Origin: a virus
Lineage: Duplodnaviria > Caudoviricetes
IMG/VR virus record: IMGVR_UViG_3300010234_000009
Span: 292-64,291 of that record
Length of the DNA: 64,000 nt
Strand: one strand, 5' to 3'
In this document: positions 23,868 through 51,571 of the stretch, one piece after another
Layout of the letters: the number at the start of each line of letters is the position of its first letter
Position numbering within the stretch: position 1 is the stretch's first letter
Made by a program: the position numbers and the translations under genes
The notes under the pieces: generated by a model
The model's input: only the letters and a program-made list of their open reading frames with translations
Databases searched by the model: none
Told to the model about the DNA's origin: nothing

Positions 23868-25361
23868 CTACGATCCGAGGTGAGCGTTCAACTCGGACTC
23901 CCACATCGCATCAAGGTCGCCTTGATTGCGAACAACAACAGGTGCTCCAACTGCGGCCGGCATTACGCTGCCCTGCGTTTGGAACGCTGCGTGTGCGTTA
24001 CCCAGGAACGAGCCGATGCGATTTGCACTGGCCTGCTCTGGACTCGGTTGCTGCGGTAAAGGACTCGGGTTGTAAACGGTCGGCAAACCGTTCACTGGCG
24101 GAACTGCTTCGTTGGCTGCTACCGGATAAGCCGGTGCGTTGGCAGGGGTAACCGGATAGGCCGGCTGCTGTGCGGCCGGTGCCGGCAACTGCTGCGCTGC
24201 CTGCTGCGCCTGCATCGCTTGTCGCTGCTGCATCTGCTGGAGTTGCAACTGGGCGAAGTCGCCTCGCAGTTGATCCAGTGCGGTGAACAGCAGTTGTTTC
24301 GGTTCGGTGATCCCGTTGTTCCGCAGCCAATCGATCCGTTGGCGGAACTGCTGGCCCATCGGGCTGTAGACCGGCTCGCCCGTTTGGTGCGCTATAACCG
24401 GTTCCCCGTTTTGCCCCTTCTCGTACAGCCAGCCGGCATTGTTCTTCTGGAATTCCCGCACGGTGTTGCGGTCTTCCACCTCTCGCAGCTTGGCCTCGAC
24501 ACGCTCCTCGACACGCTTGTCAACCTGCGTCTCGATTCCCTGCCAGGTCTTTTTGATCGGGTTGGAAAGGAAGTCGCGGGTCTTCGTGCGAAGGAACTGG
24601 TGGTACTTGTTGACCCCATCAACCCAGGCGTATGGCACCGAGGGGTTGATTGGCCGGTACGTTTCGCTTTCCTGATCGAACTCGACGTACTGTTCCCAGT
24701 TCGGATCGTATTCCGGCGCGCCCCATGCCTCATCGAGAGGGTCGCTCTCAGGTGTGGCGGGCGCTTGCGGTTGTGCCGCAGGAGGCTGTTGTTGGTACTG
24801 CTGGAGTTGCTGCGCTTGCTGCATCCCCATATGAGCGTATTGTTCCAACTGCGGACGTTCGCGAGCGATTTGCGCTAGGTGAGCAAGTGCTTGCTGATCG
24901 TCTGCAAACTGCGTTGTGTCCACCCCCTCACGAGCCAGCGCTTCGCGTACTCCACCCAGGAACGTACCTTGATCCGGCGCACCAGCGGGGGATGGTTGCG
25001 ACGGAGTTTCAGGCGTCGGGTTGTAATCCCAGCTACCGGGCGTTGTCGGTACGGTTGGCGGGGACGCCGGCGTCTGCGGTGTTACCGGTTGGTGAACAGG
25101 TTGCGGCTGGGTCGCGGGGGGGGTGATTTGTCCAGTCTGCGGCTGCCATCCTCCAGCGTCGATTGTCTGCGGAGTCGCTGGTGCCATCTGAGGTGCGGCC
25201 GGGATGACCGACGGTTGCGGTTGAGCGGGTGCTGTCTGTTGCACTGGCTGCGCAGGCTGAGGCGCACCGTTACCGTTGCCGTTGACTTGCGGATTGTAAG
25301 GGGGGAGGGACTGGGTCATTTTTTGTCTCTGCGGAATTGGGGAGGACTCGGTGTGTCGCAA
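23868..25361 (-). CDS. Capsid scaffolding protein (Pro/Gln-rich)
   Basis: Low-complexity P/Q-rich ends with a helical core, directly upstream of the capsid gene. The true start may be ATG 25319. Confidence 0.6.
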   Translation of the reverse strand: MRHTESSPIPQRQKMTQSLPPYNPQVNGNGNGAPQPAQPVQQTAPAQPQPSVIPAAPQMAPATPQTIDAGGWQPQTGQITPPATQPQPVHQPVTPQTPASPPTVPTTPGSWDYNPTPETPSQPSPAGAPDQGTFLGGVREALAREGVDTTQFADDQQALAHLAQIARERPQLEQYAHMGMQQAQQLQQYQQQPPAAQPQAPATPESDPLDEAWGAPEYDPNWEQYVEFDQESETYRPINPSVPYAWVDGVNKYHQFLRTKTRDFLSNPIKKTWQGIETQVDKRVEERVEAKLREVEDRNTVREFQKNNAGWLYEKGQNGEPVIAHQTGEPVYSPMGQQFRQRIDWLRNNGITEPKQLLFTALDQLRGDFAQLQLQQMQQRQAMQAQQAAQQLPAPAAQQPAYPVTPANAPAYPVAANEAVPPVNGLPTVYNPSPLPQQPSPEQASANRIGSFLGNAHAAFQTQGSVMPAAVGAPVVVRNQGDLDAMWESELNAHLGS

Positions 25362-26874: not shown

Positions 26875-27089
26875 GCAAGCCAGAAGGACTGGACGAACTA
26901 ATTGCCGCCTTGCAAATCTTTCGCAAGTACGGAAACCCCGCTTACCCAACGCATTGCGAACATGACGTGATGATGATTTGCGGTATCGAACCTGACGACG
27001 TTTCGGATGCCGACAAGGCGGCGTTGGACGACATGGGGTTCTTAGTCTGCGGTGACGGTTTTCATAGTTATCGTTTTGGCAGTGCATGA
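26871..27089 (+). CDS. Hypothetical protein
   Basis: 72 aa, ATGA overlap with the upstream gene; YPTHCEHD motif. Confidence 0.6.
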   Translation: MSKPEGLDELIAALQIFRKYGNPAYPTHCEHDVMMICGIEPDDVSDADKAALDDMGFLVCGDGFHSYRFGSA

Positions 27090-27125
27090 GATTTCAAGGA
27101 ACAAGGCACTACAAAGGTTAACCAA

Positions 27126-27311
27126 ATGACCCACAACCCCCGCGAAGTGATCGACCATTTTCGGCGCGCCTGCCTTCAATGCGGTGCTGTTGACTTGCCG
27201 GAAACACCGCTGGCCGACGTTGCCGAAGAACTGCTTGCCGAACGTGACCGCCTCGCCGAACGGGTGAAGGAGTTGGAGCGGCAAATTTCTTGTCGAGAGG
27301 ATCGGATATAA
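27126..27311 (+). CDS. Hypothetical protein
   Basis: 61 aa, CLQC motif plus a coiled-coil. Confidence 0.5.
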   Translation: MTHNPREVIDHFRRACLQCGAVDLPETPLADVAEELLAERDRLAERVKELERQISCREDRI

Positions 27312-27596
27312 ATGACCCACAACCTCGAGCGAATGGAGTGTATCGCAATGTTTAGCAAATGGCGTATCACCTTGATGATCCGGTTGATGCAGTGGTACGT
27401 GAAATCCTATGGCGCCACGCCGGCCGACCTCTACTCACTGGTGGACCTGCACACCAACCAGGCCGGTACGGTTGCGACCTACCGCAGCCTTTCCAGCAAG
27501 GTCAGCCTCATGAACCGGGCAGTGGACATTACCGGCGATCAGGACAAGCTGGATGAAATGTTCATCGAAAGGCTCACCGAGGAAGCAGATGAGTGA
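27312..27596 (+). CDS. Hypothetical protein
   Basis: 94-aa ORF abutting both neighbours. Confidence 0.5.
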   Translation: MTHNLERMECIAMFSKWRITLMIRLMQWYVKSYGATPADLYSLVDLHTNQAGTVATYRSLSSKVSLMNRAVDITGDQDKLDEMFIERLTEEADE

Positions 27597-27921
27597 GAAA
27601 GAGAACGAGTGGCCCTCTGGCAACGGACCCGTGGAGTACGACTACCTCACCCCGCTGTTTACAGAGATGGTGGAAAAACAGATGCGGCGGGCAAAGGAAG
27701 ACGCTATTCGCAACCGGAAGATCATCAACCTGCTGATCCCGCCCTGCCCCCCAGGCTTCCCCCAGGAAGAATTGAAGGGCGACGGCCTGCTGATCGCGGC
27801 CGATATGTGGGAGGAGAACGGGGGACTCGAGGAGGCGGAGCGTTGCCGGAAAGTACACAGTTGGCGAGTGAAACCAATCAAGTGGAAAGTCGATTTTGGA
27901 AAGGGAGAATCAGATGAGTGA
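27589..27921 (+). CDS. Hypothetical protein with TIGR02996-like motif
   Basis: LLIAADMWEENGGLEEAERCR; start overlaps the upstream gene end. Confidence 0.55.
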   Translation: MSEKENEWPSGNGPVEYDYLTPLFTEMVEKQMRRAKEDAIRNRKIINLLIPPCPPGFPQEELKGDGLLIAADMWEENGGLEEAERCRKVHSWRVKPIKWKVDFGKGESDE

Positions 27922-28288
27922 TCATGGCGAACCGTGGAAGATCGAGAAATGCAAGGCGGGCGATTACGAATTCCCCGTGGTCGTTGGTTCTCACGGTGGG
28001 ATCATATCCAGCCGATACGGTCCCCACCAGCGGAGAATGGCAGCTTGTGTCAACGCACTGGAGGGCATCCCCACTGAGGTACTGGAGAACCTGAAAGACG
28101 CCGAACATGGCGAACCGTGGGTGCTGACAGCAATATCAGGCAAGGAGCACCCTCTTTGGTGCATTGGGCCAGCGGACAATCCAGGCTTGATCATCGTGAA
28201 GAACACCCCTTCCAGCGAGACGATGAATCGCATCGTTGCTTGCATCAACGCACTGCAAGGGGTACCCACTAGGATTCTGGAACCATGA
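27914..28288 (+). CDS. Hypothetical protein built from a tandem duplicated ~60-aa domain
   Basis: HGEPW...ACVNALEGIPTEVLE followed by HGEPW...ACINALQGVPTRILE. Confidence 0.65.
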   Translation: MSDHGEPWKIEKCKAGDYEFPVVVGSHGGIISSRYGPHQRRMAACVNALEGIPTEVLENLKDAEHGEPWVLTAISGKEHPLWCIGPADNPGLIIVKNTPSSETMNRIVACINALQGVPTRILEP

Positions 28289-28292
28289 CCAT

Positions 28293-28461
28293 GCTCGCCG
28301 TAGGGGAAAGCCCCCACCGGCCGCTTTACACGCTGGGATGCACCACCGTAAGCGGCGACTCCCCAATATGCCGGCAGGGGACTCTTTCAAGGTCCGGGGA
28401 TTATCGGGGGGTCGCGCCTCACGGGAAACCCAGGTGCGGGTGCAAATCCCGCCGGCGAGCC
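28293..28461 (+). ncRNA. tRNA-like structured RNA (8-bp acceptor, 5-bp T stem, inserted arms, UUC anticodon-like loop)
   Basis: GCTCGCCG 28293-28300 pairs perfectly with CGGCGAGC 28453-28460. T arm GCGGG-TGCAAAT-CCCGC. Anticodon-like hairpin GGACT-CTTTCAA-GGTCC. No encoded CCA. Confidence 0.6.
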
Positions 28462-28467
28462 TCGAAT

Positions 28468-28508
28468 TAGTGCGCTAAGTGTGCGCTAGGCGCGCGCTAG
28501 GCGCGCGC
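28468..28508. repeat. Short tandem TAGGCGCGCGC repeats with degenerate upstream copies
   Basis: Exact 11-mer at 28487-28497 and 28498-28508, preceded by TAGTGCGC and TAAGTGTGCGC. Confidence 0.7.
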
Positions 28509-28535
28509 AAAACCCCACCAACAGGGAGATTTGAC

Positions 28536-28790
28536 GTGAAACACCCCACGGAACCCCTCACGGCTCGAATGATCGTCCACAAGAGCGTGCTCAACAAACC
28601 GGAGGCGATGATGAGCGTATGGCAAACGCTCAAGCTGCGGGTCGCCAGGAAGCACCCGAACAAAGGGTTTTTCTACGAGTTTGAGATCCGCCCACTCACC
28701 TGCGATCGATCGATGCGGGAATTCGTCCTCCACTACCGGATCGTTTTTCACTACCTCAATTTCATCAAGGGAGAACTCGGCCATGCGTAA
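28536..28790 (+). CDS. Hypothetical protein
   Basis: GTG start after GGGAGA SD (MKHPTEPLTARM...). Confidence 0.55.
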   Translation: MKHPTEPLTARMIVHKSVLNKPEAMMSVWQTLKLRVARKHPNKGFFYEFEIRPLTCDRSMREFVLHYRIVFHYLNFIKGELGHA

Positions 28791-28965
28791 CCGTCAACAA
28801 GAATGGCACTCTGCGATCGCTTTGTTTGTTATCTTCATCTCGCTTCTCGTGATGTTGCTGACCGCCCTCGTGGTGACTGCCCCCAGCCGAGCGCCACACA
28901 CCAACCCACACCAGCCCACACCAGCCCACATTAACCCACATCACGGGCAGGAAAGGTGGTACTAA
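28783..28965 (+). CDS. Small membrane protein with His/Pro-rich repeat tail
   Basis: MRNRQQEWHSAIALFVIFISLLVMLLTALVV (one TM segment) followed by PHTNPHQPTPAHINPHH. Confidence 0.5.
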   Translation: MRNRQQEWHSAIALFVIFISLLVMLLTALVVTAPSRAPHTNPHQPTPAHINPHHGQERWY

Positions 28966-28967
28966 CC

Positions 28968-29306
28968 ATGCTCTACCTCGACGTTGCCCGGCTTGTCCGC
29001 GGTGGTCCTTGGCGAACCCTCGGGTGCGCCTTAATGCTCAAGAGTTGTCCACCGCTGGGGGACGCTATCGTCGAGGGTGACCAAGCTGCGATCCGCGACC
29101 TGCTGCTCGCCTACTACAATGAGCACAAAGATTCCCAGTACACCTGGACAGACAACCCCAGCCTCGTTGCAGCGGAGTTTGGGATTGGGCAACTGTGCAT
29201 CCGGTTCGTAATCGAGGGTCCAGACTTCCCTCCCCGGCAGGACTGGCTTGTCCACTCGTTCATGAACATGGATCGGGATAACCCTGCTGGCACCTACTCG
29301 GTATAG
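28968..29306 (+). CDS. Hypothetical protein
   Basis: 112 aa, directly after the upstream stop, preceded by GGAAAGGTGG. Confidence 0.55.
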   Translation: MLYLDVARLVRGGPWRTLGCALMLKSCPPLGDAIVEGDQAAIRDLLLAYYNEHKDSQYTWTDNPSLVAAEFGIGQLCIRFVIEGPDFPPRQDWLVHSFMNMDRDNPAGTYSV

Positions 29307-29309
29307 CAT

Positions 29310-29337
29310 TTGACATCACACCGGGGTTTGGTATATC
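29310..29337 (+). promoter_or_regulatory. sigma70-type promoter
   Basis: TTGACA-N16-TATATC, with TG just upstream of the -10. Confidence 0.55.
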
Positions 29338-29563
29338 CTTCCCCGCATGACCAGTACGAGAACCTTACCGAACGATCTAAGCCCCTCGCCGGGTTTTTGG
29401 CTGGTCCCTAAATATATGGCGAGTGGGCTTTTTTTACGTACATACGCTAACCCCAGCGTGTTGAAACAAAGGGGGTCGCCGTGTTTGGCTATAAACCTGC
29501 GGAGTTGCGAGACTCCGGTTAATACACGCTTCTCTGACGTTCTTAGCGGCAACGTCAGGTGTG

Positions 29564-29608
29564 AACCCTCTCCTGACTGCACCGCATACCAGTCAGGGAG
29601 GGTTTTTT
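29564..29608 (+). terminator. Rho-independent terminator whose 3' arm contains a GGAGG SD
   Basis: AACCCTCTCCTGACTG...CAGTCAGGGAGGGTT followed by T6. Confidence 0.7.
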
Positions 29609-29609
29609 A

Positions 29610-29705
29610 ATGCGCGAAACACGAGACTCACTCGCCCTCATTGCACTCGCCCTCACCTTCCACCTCATCGTCCTCGAACTCGCAAAACACCTGCTAATAC
29701 CCTGA
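29610..29705 (+). CDS. Putative 31-aa hydrophobic peptide
   Basis: MRETRDSLALIALALTFHLIVLELAKHLLIP; GGAGG lies 8 nt upstream, inside the terminator stem. Confidence 0.4.
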   Translation: MRETRDSLALIALALTFHLIVLELAKHLLIP

Positions 29706-30000
29706 CATTGGATTCCGAGTCCAACACCAGAGCAACGCGACACACCCACAAAACATCAGGTGCGTCGCACAAAGACGACAAAAGCACGCACCCCACAAAT
29801 CGGGCGTTCGGACCTGCCCACCGCCAAGGCGTCAAGCACAGCAACAAAGGTTCGGTCGAATCGGGTGAGGATCGGATAGAGCAGCCCGCCCCGGCAATGT
29901 AAGAAACCGGGGGAAGTGCGGACCCAGTAGCCGTTAACTGCTGGGGGGGAGGGGGAAATGCGCAAGCGTACTCCCAAACCCTAAGACGGAAACACCCCCA

Positions 30001-42713: not shown

Positions 42714-43181
42714 CCCCCTGTCAGTGGCAACCTGCGATGATACGCAATCGGTGCGATCGCCGAGACTTGCATTCGCTACTATTCGCGAGTCGCATTTGTG
42801 GGAAAACGCGATGCACTGGCAGGGGGGCTTTGAAACAGTGGGATTGGCCGCGAGAGGGAGCACGTTGTTTCCTCATCTCCCGGCCGGCACTGGGCGTCAA
42901 CGGTGCCAAGCATTCTCGAACGGTTCGACCGTCGGCCAATCCCTTTTACTACGTTGTGACCTGCCCTAGCGTGTGGCTTAATGAGTGCGATGTTTTCGTC
43001 ACATGCTGGGTCACCAGCACATGCCCGTTGCGAATCGCCGGGGCCATGTTTGCACGTTCCAAGGAAGTGTAAAGTTCGTCGTCCTAAAAGTGAAAACTCG
43101 AGCCTCCGCTATGCTGCGGTTCTGCGAAAGTTTTAACTTTTACTAGACAATCTTTACCCTTGCACACCTGGGGCGGGTCAC
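42714..43181 (+). ncRNA. RT-associated structured RNA with three domains; the third has retron msr/msd-like geometry
   Basis: Closing stems: 42714-42726/42814-42826 (13 bp), 42840-42850/42933-42943 (11 bp, perfect), 42956-42975/43163-43181 (19 bp plus a 1-nt bulge). Each encloses 3-4 hairpins. Confidence 0.7.
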
Positions 43182-43206
43182 TTTTTTACAACACGATGGG
43201 GACCAC

Positions 43207-44076
43207 GTGAAACGCATTTTCATAAGCAAGCGAGGCGGGGGCAAGCGACTGGTCTACGCCTGCACTCGCAACGAGGTGATGAAGTATTGGTCGCTCTTTT
43301 ACCACCGGCTCGTGAAGATGCAGCACCAGCACCTACCACCTGGCGTAGCGCACGGGTTTGTGCCTGGCCGGTCACCGGTCACCAACGCAATGATGCACGT
43401 GAGCTATCGACACACGCTCAGTATGGACCTCAAAGACTTCTTCGATACGGTGACTCCGAACAACTGCAAGCCGGTCGTGGACGAGTACGCTGGGAAGTTC
43501 ATCACCAAAGAGAACGCCCCTGGCAGCCAGCTACCTTGCAACATCCTCAGAAACCGTCGAGGCGAACCCAACGACCGGCCAGCACTTCATGCGTTGTTCG
43601 TTGACGGTTGCGCCCGGCAGGGGATACCGACCTCGCCTATGGTGGCGAACATCGCCGCGGCCGACATGGACTGGCGGATCGAGACAACATGCCGGGGACT
43701 GGGGGTGATGTTCACCCGCTACGCAGACGATCTAACATTCAGCTTCAACGATCCCAGCCTGCGCAAGCGACTGATGGAACTGGTATTCACCGAGGCACAA
43801 CGGAAGCGGTTCCGAGTGAACCGACGCAAGACACACTTCATGAGCGCGACGCAAGGCCGGCGGATCATCACGGGCGTTGCGGTCGATGACGCGATCCATC
43901 CCACTCGCAAGCTACGACGCAAGATGAGGGCGGCAGCACACCAGTGCAACTGGGCGAGCCTGGACGGAATGAGAGAGTGGGCGAAGCTGAAACTCCCCAA
44001 GGGGTTTGTCGAGGAAGACAAGCGGGGGCGTCAAGCCTGGACGAGAGTGAGTGACGATCTGTACGGCAAGTTTTAA
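43207..44076 (+). CDS. Retron-type reverse transcriptase (stand-alone, 289 aa)
   Basis: KRGGGKR, AHGF..GRS..TNAMMH (retron region X, NAxxH), MDLKDFF, QGIPTSPMVANI, TRYADDLTFS, IITGV (region Y, VTG-like). Confidence 0.9.
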   Translation: MKRIFISKRGGGKRLVYACTRNEVMKYWSLFYHRLVKMQHQHLPPGVAHGFVPGRSPVTNAMMHVSYRHTLSMDLKDFFDTVTPNNCKPVVDEYAGKFITKENAPGSQLPCNILRNRRGEPNDRPALHALFVDGCARQGIPTSPMVANIAAADMDWRIETTCRGLGVMFTRYADDLTFSFNDPSLRKRLMELVFTEAQRKRFRVNRRKTHFMSATQGRRIITGVAVDDAIHPTRKLRRKMRAAAHQCNWASLDGMREWAKLKLPKGFVEEDKRGRQAWTRVSDDLYGKF

Positions 44077-50337: not shown

Positions 50338-51345
50338 TCACTTCACCTTTCGTTGGAAAACTCGTTCGTGTGACTTCTTCTTCGGTTGCCCGATCTTCTT
50401 CTGCAGCGCTGCGACATCCGCCTCGGTGACGATGCCGCCTGAAATCTGACAGACGCGAATCTCGTGCTCATCGGACAAGTGCCCGAGTTCTGCGTCTCCC
50501 ATGCCATGAAGCACCCGGTTCTTACACTCGGTACGCTCCTCCTCCAACGTCTTGATTTCCGATCCAAGCCGCTGGTATTCCCACCACGCCTGCCTCACGT
50601 TCGTGTCGAGCATGATCTTCTTCCCTGCAGTGTGACCATGCAGGTTGCGGATAATCTCGGACGTCTGTGAGTGGGTCCAGTTCGGTTCGGGCGGATCACG
50701 GTTCTCGATCCGCTCGGCCAGTTCCTTTTGCGCCGACACAAGGGCATCAATCATGTCGTCGTTACGGGGGACCGTGTAGATAGCAAGGTGGTGGATCGAG
50801 AAGAACACCGGGATGTCCACGGTGACATACCCGAGGACGCCCATGAGTTGCTGGCATTGCCAGTTGTAGATCACGGGTACCTCGTCCGTGCCTTCCCTCC
50901 CGAACTTGTCCATGTCGTCACCCTCTTTGTCCTTCATGTGGTAGGTGGACGCCTTCGACTCCACTCCCAATTGGGTAGCAGTTTCAGGCACCACGGCTAC
51001 CGCATCGGGTGTCGCAGCCATGAACGAGTGTTCGGGGTGGAAGAACATGGGCTGGCCGGCGAACGTCTCGTTGCCAGTCTTCTCGGAGTATTCCCCCAAG
51101 ATGATAGGCTCCATCTTGTTCCCCATCCGCAAGCCCATATTGTCCTCGATGTCCTCAGTCTCCCCCAGCTTGCGGAGGTAAATCTCCAGAGGGCCGGCGG
51201 TCCACTTCGACTGATTGACCGTTGCAGCCGCCTCGCTCGCCCCGAAAACAACCGGTCGCTCCGTCCGCTCCGGGTCGTACTTCCGCATCTGGTACCACTG
51301 TGGTGTGTGGGGCATCGGTCCCGCTATCGGTTGCTTGTCGCTCAC
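50338..51345 (-). CDS. YqaJ-like viral recombinase/alkaline exonuclease
   Basis: W...R...FGASEAA...G..MEP...MAATPD...VESK...YNWQCQQLM. Confidence 0.85.
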   Translation of the reverse strand: MSDKQPIAGPMPHTPQWYQMRKYDPERTERPVVFGASEAAATVNQSKWTAGPLEIYLRKLGETEDIEDNMGLRMGNKMEPIILGEYSEKTGNETFAGQPMFFHPEHSFMAATPDAVAVVPETATQLGVESKASTYHMKDKEGDDMDKFGREGTDEVPVIYNWQCQQLMGVLGYVTVDIPVFFSIHHLAIYTVPRNDDMIDALVSAQKELAERIENRDPPEPNWTHSQTSEIIRNLHGHTAGKKIMLDTNVRQAWWEYQRLGSEIKTLEEERTECKNRVLHGMGDAELGHLSDEHEIRVCQISGGIVTEADVAALQKKIGQPKKKSHERVFQRKVK

Positions 51346-51511
51346 GTTCAGCCTCTTGTTCTGCGGCGAACACTTCGCCTCGGAGAATGGGGATGTCACC
51401 TGGCGCATCGATCCCTAAGCGAATCTTTGAGCCTGTTCGGATCACGTGAATCGTGATCAAACCGTCGGCGAGAACGACCGTCTCACCTTTGCTACGAGAG
51501 ATAACTAACAC
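51155..51511 (-). CDS. csrA: Carbon storage regulator CsrA-like RNA-binding protein with a C-terminal extension
   Basis: GTG start after GCAGGAGGA; MLVISRSKGETVVLADGLITIHVIRTGSKIRLGIDAPGDIPILRGEV matches the CsrA pattern. Confidence 0.85.
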   Translation of the reverse strand: MLVISRSKGETVVLADGLITIHVIRTGSKIRLGIDAPGDIPILRGEVFAAEQEAERERQATDSGTDAPHTTVVPDAEVRPGADGATGCFRGERGGCNGQSVEVDRRPSGDLPPQAGGD

Positions 51512-51571
51512 AGAATCCTCCTGCGTTGTTGGTGCGCCAAGGCGCATGAAAACAACCCGTTGACCACCCGC

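Follow-up and report, generated by a model that had tools for sequence, protein, structure and literature searches.

A candidate tRNA-derived, non-decoding RNA element between two early genes of an uncultured Caudoviricetes phage

A stretch of 169 nt (28293-28461, + strand) lying between two small genes of an uncultured phage (Caudoviricetes) has ends like those of a tRNA and a centre filled with additional hairpins, which raises the question of what kind of element the phage carries at this site. A preliminary description proposed a tRNA-like RNA with a Sec/allo-tRNA-like 8/5 scaffold, an inserted hairpin and a telescoped anticodon arm, serving either as a tRNA mimic or as an unusual precursor of tRNA-Glu. 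The DNA analysed here, called the window, is 64,000 nt long and corresponds to positions 292 to 64,291 of IMG/VR record IMGVR_UViG_3300010234_000009; it covers nearly all of the source record, which has 64,291 bp and is 97% complete according to CheckV. In this study the element was examined for coding potential, folding, resemblance to known RNA classes and relatives in sequence collections. It is known from one phage alone and is to be taken as a lead.

Locus, parts and folding of the element

Leftward genes from about 25.4 kb form the structural module, which is almost without Pfam matches, and small rightward genes of unassigned function begin at 25.5 kb. Within this rightward early operon the element is placed 3 kb from the beginning, between a 124-aa ORF ending at 28288 and a following ORF with its start at 28536 or 28569. 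No RNA run holding the element sequence was listed. The upstream ORF (27914-28288) is an internal duplication, with a 44-nt repeat (28043/28238, 75% identity) and the HGEPW motif present twice, and relatives of it were found nowhere. Further into the operon, 29347-29902 holds two listed + strand ORFs with codon scores of -0.19 and -0.14 and may be another part of the operon that is non-coding or assigned to the wrong frame.

The element stretch is non-coding. A 61-residue protein gene could be drawn at 28285-28470, with an ATG that overlaps the upstream stop (ATGA) and an AGGA 9 nt upstream. Its codon score is -0.29 by the phage's own usage and its GC2 is 0.65, compared with scores between 0.14 and 0.50 in the 14 small flanking ORFs scoring as coding and a GC2 of 0.45 over all genes, and every frame of the stretch stays below coding. 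The ORF is also missing among the proteins called on the record, where both neighbours are present, and has no relative among 5.8 billion clusters, which makes a protein gene here scarcely credible.

The sequence features listed in the preliminary description were all found at 28293-28461 by direct reading and by script, and the parts are given in Table 1. The strands of the terminal helix are GCUCGCCG/CGGCGAGC, which confirms the perfect 8-bp acceptor stem, and CCA is indeed not encoded, the 3' trailer being CCU. Position -1 (28292) is U. Terminal helix and T arm together form 8 + 5 = 13 stacked pairs. Between them are placed hairpin X, of 37 nt, and a telescoped arm of 57-61 nt, whose basal helix (28355-28364/28406-28415) contains one G-U pair. 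The + strand is favoured by three G-U pairs, by lower energy and z-score, and by gene orientation.

Table 1. Parts of the element and adjoining features (window coordinates)
Feature	Position	Strand	Remarks
End of preceding ORF, 28 nt upstream	28265..28292	+	Kept with element in one partial copy elsewhere
Terminal acceptor-like helix, 5' strand	28293..28300	+	Perfect 8 bp with 28453-28460; pair probability 0.96-1.0
D-like hairpin GGGG-AAAG-CCCC	28303..28314	+	After UA linker; local hairpin 2% in ensemble
Extra hairpin X, 7 + 3 + 3 bp, apical loop GAUGCA	28320..28356	+	In minimum-energy and constrained folds
Long telescoped arm: basal helix of 8-10 bp, two short helices, tip hairpin	28357..28413	+	Basal pair probability about 1.0
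Anticodon-like tip hairpin GGACU-CUUUCAA-GGUCC	28379..28395	+	Pair probability 0.84-0.86; closing U-G pair 0.42
Variable-arm-like hairpin, tip GGG-AAA-CCC	28416..28435	+	In fold computations; 20 nt
T-arm-like hairpin GCGGG-UGCAAAU-CCCGC	28436..28452	+	Zero linker to terminal helix
Terminal helix 3' strand and one unpaired C	28453..28461	+	Read from sequence
11-nt tandem repeat, 3.5 copies, GTGCGCTAAGC-like consensus	28470..28508	+	Starts 9 nt past element; includes GCGCGCGC-UAG-GCGCGCGC hairpin

The minimum-energy fold (-86.5 kcal/mol) pairs the D-like with the T-like segment and lengthens the closing stem. A cloverleaf-like fold reaches -82.2 kcal/mol, which is 4.3 kcal/mol worse, a gap that falls within the uncertainty of the multiloop parameters of an energy model in which T-loop tertiary structure is ignored. 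The local D-like and T-like hairpins of the preliminary description are thus present in the sequence but not favoured by the energy model, as they make up 2-4% of the thermodynamic ensemble. Its extra hairpin was recovered; its 10-bp helix was not recovered in full, for bases 28355-28356 are claimed by both hairpin X and the helix and are assigned by the ensemble to hairpin X (their helix pairs have a probability of 0.07-0.08 versus about 1.0), and the long helix then has 8 pairs. In the reading that we prefer, the element would adopt a cloverleaf-like rather than a rod-like fold.

Taken as it stands, the minimum-energy fold, with D/T hairpins at 2-4%, speaks for a structured element, RNA or DNA, without tRNA character, with a long irregular closing stem and three hairpins, acting in cis on the gene downstream or as a protein platform together with the 11-nt repeats. 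The repeat array, which is unique in the window, and a downstream gene with its own leader and Shine-Dalgarno sequence point the same way. Such an element would leave unexplained why the hairpin beside the closing helix is exactly the T arm of natural tRNAs and adjoins that helix without a linker, with UA as linker on the opposite side; moreover, Rfam gave no riboswitch or leader match, and neither a sigma-70 promoter nor an intrinsic terminator was found adjoining the element. We consider this explanation unlikely.

Compared with shuffled sequences, the folding energy has a z-score of -3.3 on the + strand and -2.3 on the - strand, and the GC-adjusted stability ranks 19th among 1596 windows of the same genome, i.e., in the top 1.2%. 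Stability alone proves little, because 19 of 1596 GC-corrected windows fold at least as well.

Comparison with known RNA classes

ARAGORN with default settings called 0 tRNA or tmRNA genes in the whole window, and with -m it gave no tmRNA either; the phage is accordingly without canonical tRNA genes by this program. Rfam 15 returned nothing in the window at the gathering score and nothing relevant at E<=10 on 28100-28700, FMN and cobalamin riboswitch aptamers included. The expectation that standard finders would miss the element was therefore correct, and the FMN or cobalamin riboswitch match named beforehand as a refutation was looked for and is absent. Since Rfam gave no relevant match at the gathering score or at E<=10, ordinary tRNA, tRNA-Sec, tmRNA, FMN and cobalamin riboswitches, group II intron domains and known small ribozymes are excluded. 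Y-RNA/YrlA and phi29 pRNA were also considered and dropped, as neither has an Rfam match to the element.

Individual features give a mixed picture. The 5-bp T arm, with loop U54..C56 R57 A58, is stacked on the acceptor as in tRNA, and position 55 is G. In a tRNA the anticodon stem (5 bp, 7-nt loop) is attached to the core itself; the element instead has its 7-nt loop at the end of an arm of 57-61 nt and contains an additional hairpin. The element also departs from a tmRNA, which has tRNA-like ends with G3-U70 and a tag frame, position 3 being U-A or C-G. When the threshold of ARAGORN was lowered to 80% and introns were allowed, 28294-28461 was reported as a class II tRNA-Pro(cgg) in which 80 nt separate position 31 from position 32. 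We read this relaxed call only as an independent sign that the acceptor, D, variable and T parts would fit a tRNA frame.

Taken literally, the call would make the element the precursor of a decoding tRNA, either Pro(CGG) after removal of 80 nt or Glu(UUC) from the tip hairpin, whose CUUUCAA loop has U33 and a purine at 37. The 80-nt 'intron' lies between 31 and 32, not at 37/38, matches no Rfam ribozyme or intron, and its removal would break the strongest helix. To our knowledge all self-splicing introns of bacteria are far longer, and we know of no bacterial pathway for shortening a 61-nt arm. A decoding precursor is for these reasons most improbable.

With bacterial tRNA-Sec (RF01852) the element shares the 8/5 branch, i.e., an 8-bp acceptor on a 5-bp T stem, as well as a 4-nt D loop and a long variable arm. 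It differs in having a D stem of 4 pairs rather than 6, CUUUCAA and no UCA anticodon, C (28461) instead of G73 after the helix, an arm of 61 nt, and no match to the model. The 8/5 arrangement also fits bacterial tRNA-His (G-1:C73), and in the element the base that pairs with the first G is C. Thus, of the Sec/allo-tRNA-like scaffold of the preliminary description, the 8/5 branch holds and most features that define Sec and allo-tRNAs do not. Allo-tRNAs have a 12-bp branch arranged as 8/4 or 9/3 (PMC5389517), and by that description the 8/5 branch of 13 bp in the element falls outside the class.

Two further phage genes were considered. A CsrA homologue (PF02599, E 7e-12) is encoded at 51155-51544 (-), and five GGA motifs, one of them a GGAUG in a hairpin loop, might make the element a sponge for this phage protein or one of its targets. 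The many GGA motifs in hairpin loops that mark a Csr/Rsm sponge were not found: the count of 5 compares with 3.5 expected from composition, and most lie in stems or at stem-loop borders. Known Csr/Rsm RNAs have a GGA density far above the 1 per 34 nt of the element, and we hold such a role to be very unlikely.

The second gene is a retron-type reverse transcriptase at 43207-44076 (best PADLOC model RT_XIII, 2e-42). A retron msr-msd is placed directly upstream of the reverse transcriptase, and the element does not agree with this, since the enzyme is 14.7 kb away and has its own upstream structured region; a second retron RNA, also considered, was dropped as too far from the enzyme. About 470 nt without an ORF precede the reverse transcriptase (region 42714-44076), and they include a domain at 42840-42943 with a folding z of -4.3. 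There, a segment ACGG-UUCGA-CCGT abuts the 11-bp closing stem and is a second T-arm-on-stem design in this phage; the predicted fold of the domain pairs the segment one base out of T-arm register. No DGR-type repeat for the reverse transcriptase was found by repeat search.

Geometry, T loop and relatives

On both strands of the window there is one perfect 8-bp helix directly stacked on a 5-bp hairpin whose loop reads U[UG]C[AG]ANN, compared with an expectation of 0.013 per dinucleotide shuffle (300 shuffles), and a window scan showed that every other T-type hairpin in the phage lacks the partner helix. The geometry of terminal helix and T arm is unlikely by chance in this window; in a scan of some 250,000 windows, however, chance will produce a coincidence of 0.013 per window many times.

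The loop UGCAAAU had been called atypical, which turned out to be wrong. The T-arm 16-mer was found at 105 loci in IMG/VR, and at many of them the loop belongs to ARAGORN-called tRNAs (Met, Gly, Ile, Cys, Leu, Ser, Arg) and tmRNAs; the T-arm core GGGTGCAAATCCC is likewise present in called tRNAs and tmRNAs of IMG/VR contigs. UGCAAAU is therefore a natural variant seen in many called phage tRNAs and tmRNAs, and none of the 105 loci shows the architecture of the element. Among the ARAGORN-called tRNAs on loci L008-L112 (IMG/VR and JGI contigs fetched by T-arm patterns), GG was present in the D region of 13 of 64 tRNAs with a UG.. T loop versus 122 of 123 with a UU.. T loop. The combination of a UG.. 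T loop with a D loop lacking GG is an A18/G55 elbow, for which a literature search returned no paper. Whole tRNA sets of the UG.. type are carried by L053, L057 and L073.

The D-like loop of the element, AAAG, ends in AG and, by its letters, would fit the A18/G55 class. Phage tRNAs of this class share with the element the T loop UGCRANN and have AG instead of GG in their D loops; unlike the element, they are full decoding tRNAs detected by ARAGORN. Class II tRNAs called by ARAGORN on L109, L111 and L112 carry the tip GGGAAACCC followed by the identical T-arm core. Judged by the T loop, the AG of the D loop and the shared tip and T-arm core, the 3' third of the element resembles the corresponding portion of a class II tRNA with A18/G55-type rewiring. 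The resemblance to tRNA is more than cosmetic.

When JGI metagenomes were searched with a pattern of variable arm plus T arm, five matches were obtained: three class II tRNAs, a group II intron stretch on L110 and an unclassified sequence on L108. The GGGUGCAAAUCCC hairpin lies inside the group II intron D1 domain at L110:330-550 (Rfam RF02005, 89.5 bits), so that a tRNA cannot be recognised by this motif alone; L108:1356-1380 has the same GGGUGCAAAUCCC hairpin and a similar downstream motif.

Searches for relatives of the element itself returned little. In IMG/VR, the tip-hairpin 17-mer gave one chance match inside a gene, the D-junction 18-mer four chance matches, and the hairpin-X 20-mer and the D-to-T gapped pattern nothing. 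The T-arm plus acceptor 22-mer was not found in 185,579 GTDB genomes, and a blastn search of INPHARED phages with 27000-30000 was negative. The flanking proteins are singleton clusters without relatives in IMG/VR or in the collection of 5.8 billion clusters; PADLOC gave no match for them, and Protein Atlas nothing usable for either. As no usable homologue was found, a covariation test was impossible.

A HMMER search with a 497-aa protein of the structural module (23868-25361) found relatives with at most 37% identity. By this route, L117 (JGI, a contig of 35 kb) and L118 (ENA, a contig of 64,116 bp) were recognised as distant syntenic relatives, in which the structural module is shared and the order of the following genes is kept; a DUF6744 gene is common to the phage and L117, and a Methyltransf_24 gene to the phage and L118. 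A covariance model of the element, run with filters off, matched neither L117 nor L118, and both contigs lack tRNAs as well as any T hairpin accompanied by an acceptor helix. One 168-nt, low-coverage contig from a sediment metagenome (run X1) corresponds to 28265-28403 with two differences, preceded by 27 nt unrelated to the window. The 5' two-thirds of the element thus exist in a second sample beside different sequence, and the contig is uninformative about pairing.

The best foreign match to the covariance model of the element (26.6 bits, E 0.0014, a modest score that is partly forced, the T arm having been the search bait) is a family of 87-nt genes, found at L010:5711-5797(-) and also on L016, L039, L045 and L085. 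Common to this family and the element are the acceptor of 8 bp, a linker of 2 nt, the D stem of 4 bp closed by a tetraloop, the long variable arm and the identical T arm, and the family members are likewise solitary, co-oriented with phage genes and missed by ARAGORN and Rfam. Unlike the element, they are of normal overall size, have no inserted hairpins and are located in a capsid module. This family has an odd 8-nt loop, ACAUCAAA, and lies between a SecB-like ORF and scaffold and capsid genes. Three more tRNA-shaped families with the same T arm were noticed, all missed by ARAGORN and, for the one representative tried from each (L004, L011, L003), without an Rfam match. The first (L004, L006, L022, L051, L055 and L078) has 115-118 nt, and its long arm reads GGCC..GGCC in one member and GGTC..GACC in another, which looks compensatory; the second (L011, L019 and L044) has about 100 nt; the third (L003, L067 and L104, with a variant on L017) has 67 nt, a CUUGUAA loop and no D arm.

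These searches bear on whether the element has any function, as it could be the decayed remnant of a tRNA gene enlarged by insertions, or a fold that arose by chance where the spacer is GC-rich. The element is a singleton that the distant relatives lack, its stability is not extreme for the genome, the phage is without canonical tRNA genes, and GC-rich sequence gives many alternative pairings. Decay or chance would have to be reconciled with tRNA-frame helices that are all intact and a terminal helix that is perfect; with inserted hairpins of which, as of every other part of the element, a repeat search found no second copy in the genome; with 139 nt kept nearly identical in a contig from another sample whose flank differs; and with about 250 nt retained at this site despite the tight packing of the phage genome. 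The absence of function is in our view unlikely.

A tentative reading and its meaning

The explanation that we tentatively prefer, at somewhat less than even odds, is that the element is a structured RNA that derives from a tRNA, does not decode and is recognised by the enzymes of tRNA processing. RNase P, 3' trimming enzymes and the CCA-adding enzyme read a stacked acceptor and T arm with its elbow, and bacterial RNase P favours U at position -1. Processing by tRNA enzymes is proposed because the acceptor and T arm of the element are intact and U is present at -1. The element would be transcribed within the rightward early operon; its 13-pair terminal helix and T arm, the U at -1 and the A18/G55-type elbow would mimic the part of a tRNA that these enzymes read. 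Cuts at 28292/28293 and near 28461 would then free a stable RNA of ~169 nt from the early transcript and uncouple the upstream and downstream cistrons. Two hairpins, one of them 57-61 nt long, would take the place of the anticodon arm, and the RNA presumably could not reach the ribosomal decoding centre, because its anticodon-like loop sits on an arm about three times too long. Such an RNA may also have a role in trans.

Parallels to a processed, non-decoding tRNA relative exist in other systems. T4 species 1 / RNA C and RNA D are phage-encoded, have 120-140 nt or more and acceptor-like paired ends, and do not decode. They differ from the element in lying within tRNA clusters and being processed with the tRNAs, whereas the phage studied here is without tRNA genes; the element has no sequence or model match to the T4 stable RNAs, and its processing is predicted. 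Plant mitochondrial t-elements (PMC1920247) are, like the element, mimics of an acceptor and T arm placed between cistrons, and there the cuts of RNase P and RNase Z, which set mRNA ends, rest on recognition of acceptor and T arm. The t-elements are small; the element adds three hairpins of >110 nt and is the sole such site in its phage.

A bolder version, which we hold to be improbable, keeps the full top half of a tRNA mimic, trimmed and CCA-added by the host and perhaps charged, and takes the tRNA-Glu-type loop on its 61-nt stalk as bait: the RNA would stay out of translation and lure away a defence enzyme with which the host attacks tRNAs, either an anticodon nuclease or an acceptor-modifying toxin.

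The element would unite a Sec/His-like branch of 13 pairs with a T loop of the A18/G55 type and two large inserted arms; it stands outside any Rfam family. For non-decoding tRNA look-alikes, which are encountered repeatedly in phages, candidate roles are the punctuation of messages by tRNA enzymes or service as decoys in conflicts over host tRNA. If expressed and processed, the element would offer a compact test of which tRNA parts are sufficient for RNase P, the CCA-adding enzyme or defence nucleases.
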